A stretch of DNA of 64,000 nucleotides from Escherichia phage ECO340P2, in the sequence record OP172792. One strand, 5' to 3'. The notes beneath the pieces were generated by a model. That model did not search any database. It was not told the origin of the DNA and was given only the letters and a program-made list of their open reading frames with translations. A program made the position numbers and the translations under genes. Positions 63,359 through 64,000 of this stretch are shown here, one piece after another; positions within the stretch are counted from its first letter, which is position 1; each line of letters begins with the position of its first letter.

Positions 63359-64000
63359 GATAATCTCCTCTCATTGTTAGCCATCTTTCATGGCAATCAT
63401 CAATCACCAACATCATACGATCAATCTTAGGGAATTACAATCGAATTATCATAGGGGATTCCTATCAATTATCCTATATATACCGATTATTTTTGACACC
63501 CCACTCTTGTATAAAAAGTAACCCAAAATATCTACGGGGAGAGATTATTTCGGGACACCCTGTTTCATGGCAATCATGGCAAGAATATCTAATAGAATCA
63601 ATATCATATGGCAAAAATCATGGCGCATACGTAAGAAGTGCTTAACGCGAATTTTCGGGCCGTCAGGTCCACGCAGCGACAATTCCCAAATATCATGCGA
63701 ATGAGAATAATTATCATTCGTATTCAATGACTTATGCAAGGCTCATGCCAACGTAGCGACAAGGTGGGCCACTTGATTATAAATCACACAAACACTTATT
63801 TATCAATAGGTTGGCAACCTCATCATATGACGGAACAATGTCAACTAATCCCGCTCATGACAAGCAGACTATTATTCATATGAGAATGATTATTATTTAA
63901 ACGTTTATTAACATAAAAGCCAAAATAAATCAAGAATTTTCTGATTTTATTTACGTTTAAAAGAAGATGCTCAACATTCCCGCCTGTGGCGGTAACATTT

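Follow-up and report, generated by a model that had tools for sequence, protein, structure and literature searches.

A putative direct terminal repeat with conserved edges in the gene-free region beside the early genes of Escherichia phage ECO340P2

The genomes of phages T7 and T3 are bounded by direct terminal repeats (DTRs) of 160 and 231 bp, respectively, with fixed ends and one copy of the repeat at each concatemer junction. In T7, the early promoters used by the host RNA polymerase are located immediately inside one end, and the repeat has short repeated sequences on its flanks. The cos site of phage lambda gives 12-nt cohesive ends and includes an IHF site, and a host DNA-binding protein assists the terminase there. 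Conserved binding sites for a host regulator, Spo0A, are described in the lytic phages phi29 and Nf (PMC2731898).

Closer to the phage considered here, a review of its subfamily states that the members end in direct terminal repeats (PMC12695924). A repeat of 328 bp has been published for Schickermooser (PMC6563267), the termini of Mt1B1_P17 were set with PhageTerm (PMC10470868), and a DTR of 342 bp was obtained by PhageTerm in BME3, a member of Justusliebigvirus (PMC12210895). The DTR as a kind of feature, and its presence in the genus Phapecoctavirus, is already published. The reports on Schickermooser, Mt1B1_P17 and BME3 give the length of the repeat only, not an edge motif or internal elements; the motif common to both edges, the elements inside the repeat, and the Fur-like boxes, all presented below, were not found described, and the motif and the boxes may be new details.

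The window is the whole stretch of DNA that was analysed, 64,000 nucleotides from the ECO340P2 record (OP172792). Its last 800 bp match some 64-67 GenBank Phapecoctavirus phages with 95-99% identity, and the phage belongs to this genus of the Stephanstirmvirinae, a group of E. coli myoviruses of ~150 kb. Other contents of the window include a Mu-type portal gene, a large-terminase gene (3536-5611, minus strand, matching Terminase_6N, and 58 kb from the junction described below), ten tRNA genes, and nucleotide-metabolism genes. The early genes up to 63358 are all on the minus strand, so the gene-free region beyond them is their upstream side; it had been described as following the final early gene, which is not so in the transcriptional sense. 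On the ORF map, the flanking genes are directed away from the repeat. In relatives the gene-free gap measures ~1.5 kb (AV126, locus L001, 4009-5569), and the window holds its first ~640 bp.

Part of this region, 63644-63971, is homologous (96-99%) to the 328-bp repeat at the ends of the relatives' records, which agrees with the suggestion of the first-pass annotation that the region may be terminal or packaging-related. The Mt1B1_P17 record starts with AACGCGAATTTTCGGG, equivalent to window position 63644, and ends with GAAGATGCT, equivalent to 63971, giving 328 bp at both ends. The Schickermooser record has an exact terminal repeat of 329 nt with the same edges as the DTR of the window; its left end is called between 63642 and 63643, and that of Mt1B1_P17 between 63643 and 63644. 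For BI-EHEC and WPEC1, 2, 4, and 6, the match coordinates imply an identical 328-bp repeat at both ends, while Ro121lw and three NWU phages are linearised precisely at TGCT^CAAC. At least ten records from several laboratories begin or stop at the equivalent of the boundary between 63971 and 63972, and several do so at 63643/63644. The record of the Justusliebigvirus PD114 is linearised at GGCT^CAAC, the equivalent right-edge site. A scan of IMG/VR with a 26-nt DTR pattern gave no matches, and all comparisons therefore rest on GenBank records.

In the relatives' records, the repeat stands in direct orientation at both ends and the termini are fixed and non-permuted; the window contains one copy. 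Since the same 328 bp are found at the relatives' ends, 63644-63971 is read by homology as the DTR of this isolate. We consider it very probable that the region is the joined junction of two ends of a linear genome, consisting of the DTR, a promoter and leader region on its left, and a non-coding leader of ~900 bp on its right (Table 1). The single copy is what would be expected of a concatemer-like, joined or permuted assembly. Compared with the DTRs of Schickermooser and Mt1B1_P17, the sequence, edges, length, and position beside small early genes are the same. This isolate differs from the published DTR phages in the type-A unit after the right edge and in an extra first early ORF of 51 aa, and in nothing essential.

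Table 1. Coordinates of the features at the putative junction of genome ends in the window
Feature	Position	Strand	Evidence or remarks
Direct terminal repeat (DTR), by homology	63644..63971	.	328 bp; homologous to both ends of relatives' records
DTR left edge	63633..63650	+	AAGAAGTGCT^TAACGCGA; record ends, conserved motif
DTR right edge	63962..63977	+	AGAAGATGCT^CAACAT, cut after 63971; >10 records from different laboratories begin or end here
Start of unique sequence beside the left-end DTR copy	63972..64000	+	CAACAT, palindrome CCGCCtgtGGCGG (63980-63992), then TTCGCCCCC just past the window end
Non-coding 5' UTR and promoter region	63359..63643	-	ORF map; nothing credible annotated in homologous records
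Candidate proximal sigma-70 promoter P1	63412..63440	-	Consensus scan
Candidate distal promoter	63544..63573	-	-35 TTGCCA, 18-nt spacer, -10 AATAAT; 10/12 matches
TTTCATGGCAATCAT, copy 1	63386..63400	+	Lies in the first gene's 5' UTR; ZCKP1 and EF1-1 have a different local sequence
TTTCATGGCAATCAT, copy 2	63563..63577	+	Reverse complement carries TTGCCA, the -35-like hexamer of the candidate distal promoter
Conserved block	63458..63499	.	42 nt, CCTATCAATTATYCTATATATACC..TTATTTTTGACAC, cross-genus
Element 1	63695..63723	.	29-bp near-palindrome ATGCGAATGAGAAT-A-ATTATCATTCGTAT; holds GAATGAGAATAATTATCATTCG of the first-pass annotation
Element 2	63879..63897	.	TATGAGAATGATTATTATT; second copy in direct orientation, ~179 bp from element 1
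AT-rich imperfect palindrome	63896..63961	.	TTTAAACGTTTATTAA...TTTATTTACGTTTAAA around AAATAAATCAAGAA/TTCTGATTTTATTT; fills the last ~75 bp of the DTR
CGYAGCGACAA copies	63672..63682 (CGCAGCGACAA), 63752..63762 (CGTAGCGACAA)	+	Least conserved parts of the DTR (0.28-0.5)

A different mode of packaging, headful filling from a pac site with one fixed start and variable ends, would suit a non-coding, repeat-bearing region, the type that often holds pac sites. However, both ends are fixed to the nucleotide in the relatives' records, the redundancy is exactly 328 bp, and PhageTerm classed the sister genus as DTR, which makes a pac site extremely improbable.

The two edges of the repeat resemble each other. 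They read GTAAGAAGTGCT^TAACGCG on the left and AAAGAAGATGCT^CAACAT on the right, and the alignment of AAGAAG-TGCTTAAC with AAGAAGATGCTCAAC, that is AAGAAG(-/A)TGCT(T/C)AAC, gives the common motif AAGAAG(N)TGCT^YAAC. Only 0.2% of random pairs of sites in the window score equally well (p ~0.002). Both edge motifs form islands of conservation in the ~70%-identical clade of PsgM04F and phiWec186 and in four Justusliebigvirus genomes, all of which keep the left-edge motif TGCTTAACGCGAWTTTT. In the four Justusliebigvirus genomes the two motifs are 343-344 bp apart, which fits the 342-bp DTR of BME3. Judged from these alignments, the putative cut positions and their motif are conserved at the level of the subfamily. 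The shorter core GTGCTYAAC also occurs at 60549, with two matches in the window against 0.75 expected and no overall enrichment; this chance frequency led us to reject it as a sufficient recognition site by itself. In the WPEC records with two or three tandem GCTCAACAT units, the cut is still at the first unit, and further context would therefore be needed beyond the short core.

The arrangement is like that of T7 and T3 in that the ends are fixed, the repeat measures a few hundred bp, and each concatemer junction has one copy. Unlike T7, the phage belongs to the ~150-kb myoviruses, its large terminase matches a T4-type N-terminal domain model, and its ends have no sequence similarity to those of T7. 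To our knowledge, a single, directly oriented motif shared by the two repeat edges has not been described for T7.

A T7-type mechanism may be proposed as follows. After replication, the genomes would form head-to-tail concatemers, each junction holding a single copy of the repeat; the terminase would recognise AAGAAG(N)TGCT^YAAC at both edges and cut both, on opposite strands; extension of the 3' ends would then duplicate the repeat, so that each packaged genome could receive a full copy. Early promoters for the host polymerase just inside one end would drive the small early genes inward on the minus strand. In the general scheme, DTRs arise via 3' extension at staggered nicks (PMC5557969). 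Against this scheme, the edge motif is oriented alike at both edges, whereas a simple staggered-nick model calls for nicks on opposite strands. From homology and motifs we infer the nicking chemistry, the strand cut at each edge, the activity of the promoters, the proteins bound, and the use of the same ends in this isolate.

The region is non-coding, as had been noted. Its longest ORFs, on both strands, have 30-64 aa, and a PHROG search of the three longest returned no match. Nearly all ORFs are broken by in-frame stops or by frameshifts in PsgM04F, phiWec186, and PD114, where the DNA motifs themselves remain conserved; the 43-aa ORF at 63390-63521 has an open frame in one relative, and the 30-aa ORF at 63841-63933 has a frameshift but no stop in another. 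A search of the region against Rfam gave only an archaeal snoRNA model at 25.5 bits (gathering threshold 39, E = 0.026), which was judged to be a chance match. The flanking sequence does not turn the region into the interior of an ordinary gene either, since the flank in relatives consists of a further ~900 bp of non-coding DNA.

Several records annotate two to six 'hypothetical proteins' in the repeat and the adjacent non-coding DNA, namely those of ETEC-TG, BI-EHEC, dw-ec, and PsgM04F (locus L015, 1673-3146). These annotations, together with the 30-64-aa ORFs on both strands, are what might point to hidden genes for small proteins. The frames so annotated are not preserved between relatives, and the calls are therefore probably false. 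Given the broken frames beside preserved DNA motifs, the lack of PHROG matches for the three longest ORFs, and the fact that most curated records annotate nothing here, hidden genes are highly improbable. Identification of the DTR prevents such false gene calls in the region.

The pattern of conservation comes from alignments of the window to PsgM04F and phiWec186, which are ~70% identical to it, and to the Justusliebigvirus PD114 (~60%). The conserved islands are 63458-63499, the left edge at 63630-63660, 63680-63740 containing element 1, 63880-63900 corresponding to element 2, and the last 50 bp up to the right edge. Conservation is strongest at the two edges of the repeat rather than at the predicted promoters. 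The first island, a 42-nt block, is the most widely conserved piece: it has ~90% identity to three relatives whose overall identity is 60-70%, and it is all of the region that blastn finds in ~58 Justusliebigvirus-type records. It carries a perfect TTGACA on the plus strand (63494-63499). A plus-strand promoter formed by this hexamer and TATAAA was considered and rejected, since the spacer would have just 11 nt and relatives do not keep a consistent -10.

In the virion, 63359-63643 would separate the early genes from the right-end DTR copy. The best promoter candidate in this part appears to be P1, with -35 TTGTAA (63440-63435), a 17-nt spacer, -10 TATGAT (63417-63412), and a predicted start near 63405. 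Its hexamers persist as TTGTAA and TAGGAT or TAAGAT in ZCKP1, EF1-1, PsgM04F, and phiWec186 despite diverged flanks. The distal candidate is conserved in close relatives and not in diverged ones. The TTTCATGGCAATCAT copies are lineage-specific, and copy 2 is poorly conserved in diverged relatives (0.43-0.5).

The proposal of an upstream regulatory array is thus plausible for 63359-63643, where sigma-70-like sites face the minus-strand genes, but their number is not above chance (8 against 4.5 +/- 2.3 in shuffled sequences). More broadly, the whole region could be nothing other than the transcription-control region of the early operon, its repeats serving as promoter or operator elements and the record ends of relatives being conventions of assembly, not physical termini. 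In addition to the orientation of the sigma-70-like sites, the -35-like hexamer TTGCCA carried by the TTTCATGGCAATCAT copies and a promoter-like TTCCCA-17-AATAAT on the plus strand, overlapped by element 1, speak for this. Against it, PhageTerm derived the termini of Mt1B1_P17 and BME3 from reads, the records of independent laboratories converge on one nucleotide, and an overlap of 328 bp is atypical of an assembler k-mer artefact; the unremarkable promoter count and the peaks of conservation at the repeat edges argue in the same direction. A purely regulatory role therefore appears very unlikely, and a junction of genome ends that also bears promoters is the preferred reading.

All the strings quoted in the first-pass annotation are present, although copy 1 of TTTCATGGCAATCAT lies 20-34 nt outside the repeat-rich stretch as it was delimited, from 63420. 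No exact direct repeat within 63420-64000 is longer than 9 nt, a length reached by 70% of dinucleotide shuffles, whereas repeated 8-mers are in excess (16 against 6.2 +/- 3.1, p ~0.008). Only if the region is begun at 63360 does the 15-nt repeat exceed all 500 shuffles. The near-palindromes are real and moderately better than shuffles (folded as DNA, z = -3.3 for 63695-63723, and z = -2.2 for 63896-63961), and CCGCCtgtGGCGG is present. The CGYAGCGACAA pair was rejected as a functional repeat since both copies lie in the least conserved stretches of the DTR; it is probably not functional.

A replication origin had also been suggested; in such a reading the repeats would be iterons, and the AT-rich palindromes would serve as unwinding elements. 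The GC content falls to 0.31-0.39 across the gap, the AV126 homologue shows a local minimum of cumulative GC skew at the junction, repeated 8-mers are enriched, and many ATTATTG-like motifs occur in relatives just past the window end. However, there are no DnaA boxes (no TTWTNCACA in 63360-64000), only one match to the IHF consensus is found (at 63801), and each repeat family has at most two good copies in the part within the window, so that an array of at least three iterons is absent from it. The local change of skew coincides with, and is explained by, a G+T-rich non-coding tract outside the window which resembles a plus-strand transcription unit; there is no genome-wide switch of skew, and the genes on both sides share a strand. 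Since nothing sets the region apart from ordinary terminal non-coding DNA, an origin is very unlikely, and the suggestion was not upheld.

Inside the putative DTR, two related elements stand out. The 14-nt arms of element 1 are 86% complementary, and GAATGAGAATAATTATCATTCG (63699-63720) is related to ATATGAGAATGATTATTATT (63878-63897) with 79% identity over a 28-nt register. The pattern TGAGAATRATTAT occurs exactly in elements 1 and 2 and nowhere else within the 64 kb; the pair is kept across genera, and element 2 is ~90% conserved. Element 1 probably binds a dimeric protein, and the two elements are most likely protein-binding sites that aid the packaging complex or control the terminal promoters. 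In the adjoining AT-rich palindrome, the stretch 63930-63960 is 85% conserved across genera.

Both elements resemble the Fur box of E. coli. The comparison was made by counting matches to the 19-bp consensus GATAATGATAATCATTATC, which often occurs as overlapping matches displaced by 6 bp, and was begun after the resemblance had been noticed. Element 1 has 15/19 matches at 63697, the best site in the window, with overlapping sites of 12-14/19 at +3, +6, and +9 and on the other strand, and element 2 has 14/19 at 63882. Eleven sites in the 64 kb score at least 14/19, four of which fall in elements 1 and 2. Among shuffled versions of the DTR, a maximum of at least 15/19 was reached in 0.7% (p 0.007) and four sites of at least 14 never occurred, bearing in mind that any AT-rich palindrome scores well. 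The equivalent of element 1 in PsgM04F and phiWec186 has 17/19 matches, as does the equivalent of element 2 in Justusliebigvirus, and additional Fur-like sites are found in the relatives' flank past the window. A literature search for Fur boxes in lytic phages found nothing relevant.

It is conceivable, if rather doubtful, that both palindromes and the similar sites along the terminal non-coding DNA of relatives are operators for the host Fur protein; the resemblance is a lead and not a finding. If they were, these virulent phages would make either transcription from their ends or the building of the packaging complex depend on the iron status of the host, a rare case of a virulent phage reading a nutritional signal of its host at its genome ends. 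The Spo0A sites described for phi29 and Nf offer a precedent for a virulent phage with sites for a global host regulator, and are relevant to the candidate Fur boxes; those phages differ from the present one in host, in regulator, and in their protein-primed genome ends. The arrangement is also like lambda cos in combining a cut site with nearby putative protein-binding elements, possibly sites for host factors, and unlike it in having a 328-bp repeat and conserved elements that resemble Fur boxes rather than IHF sites.

Outside the window, close to where the gap ends on its far side in the AV126 locus (L001, 5290-5440), a promoter-like TTGCAT-18-GATAAT is overlapped by a Fur-like box of 15/19. 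It is followed by a strong RBS, AAAGGAGGTAAAAGGGTG, and by an ORF of ~30 codons that carries no annotation. A bidirectional terminator at 5533-5555 of the same locus ends the neighbouring minus-strand gene.

On the right-hand side of the repeat, the homology that close relatives share is interrupted at 63977. The sequence then continues with a modular unit made up of GCTCAACAT, a short palindrome, and TTCGCCCCC. The unit is of three types and occurs in one to three tandem copies, a number that varies between near-identical phages; the variation is seen in loci L011 (nepoznato, 2060-2250), L007, L010, L019, and L021. The loop of the type-B palindrome is TAC in phAPEC8, Mt1B1_P17, and EF1-1, and GTA in AV125, nieznany, TSP7_1, UP17, and nepoznato, with flanks identical in the two forms; as read from these sequences, this is a loop inversion of the kind typical of DNA hairpins. 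A hairpin immediately after the right cut was considered as a universal signal and rejected, since types A and B have stems of only 5-6 bp (z -1.5 to -2.5). Type C and the diverged relatives fold no better than shuffles after the right cut.

In Justusliebigvirus, the palindrome unit of Phapecoctavirus is replaced by ~3-5 CAACAAATAG-like repeats right after the cut, spaced roughly 10-25 nt (the PD114 junction of L013 and L014, KKP_3264 in L022, phiWec187 in L023, and muut in L024). The muut record annotates a repeat_region nearby in the same non-coding gap.

Farther to the right, a structured element lies by homology ~225-395 nt past the window end (AV126, L001, 4831-4990; Mt1B1_P17, L004, 525-684). 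It is conserved, spans ~165-185 nt on the plus strand, and comprises five helices with 45 base pairs. In a comparison of 13 sequences representing three clades, every pair is intact, and compensatory double changes are seen in six pairs; the changes come from few independent lineages. Pairing is complete in all 540 cells, compared with 26-52% after sliding of the partners, and none of 500 shuffles reaches this. Several of the G-U pairs would be A-C on the other strand, and this points to a plus-strand RNA (or plus-strand single-stranded DNA). One hairpin loop is ACC in Phapecoctavirus and GGT in Justusliebigvirus. The element has no match in Rfam, and a search of the AV126 flank gave only sub-threshold snoRNA matches, which were treated as chance.

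The DTR assigned to 63644-63971 would fix the true start and end of the genome and explain the arbitrary points at which assemblies have been opened. Since Phapecoctavirus and Justusliebigvirus are widely used as candidates for therapy and biocontrol, a defined packaging signal would serve their engineering. Even leaving Fur aside, the TGCT^YAAC edge motif and the palindromes may define a new and tractable packaging signal in a large group of therapeutic coliphages.

The first early gene beside the junction (63203-63358, minus strand) is a very hydrophobic 51-aa ORF with its start codon at 63358. Its DNA is missing from the listed relatives, whose megablast matches begin at 63350; in these, a gene of the 114-aa type uses the same RBS and start codon. 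This arrangement looks like a mosaic junction just past the start codon. Next to it, two early genes matching phrog_2510, a family without known function, are adjacent paralogues of 127 and 114 aa (62511-62894 and 62869-63213, minus strand), which overlap by 26 nt.
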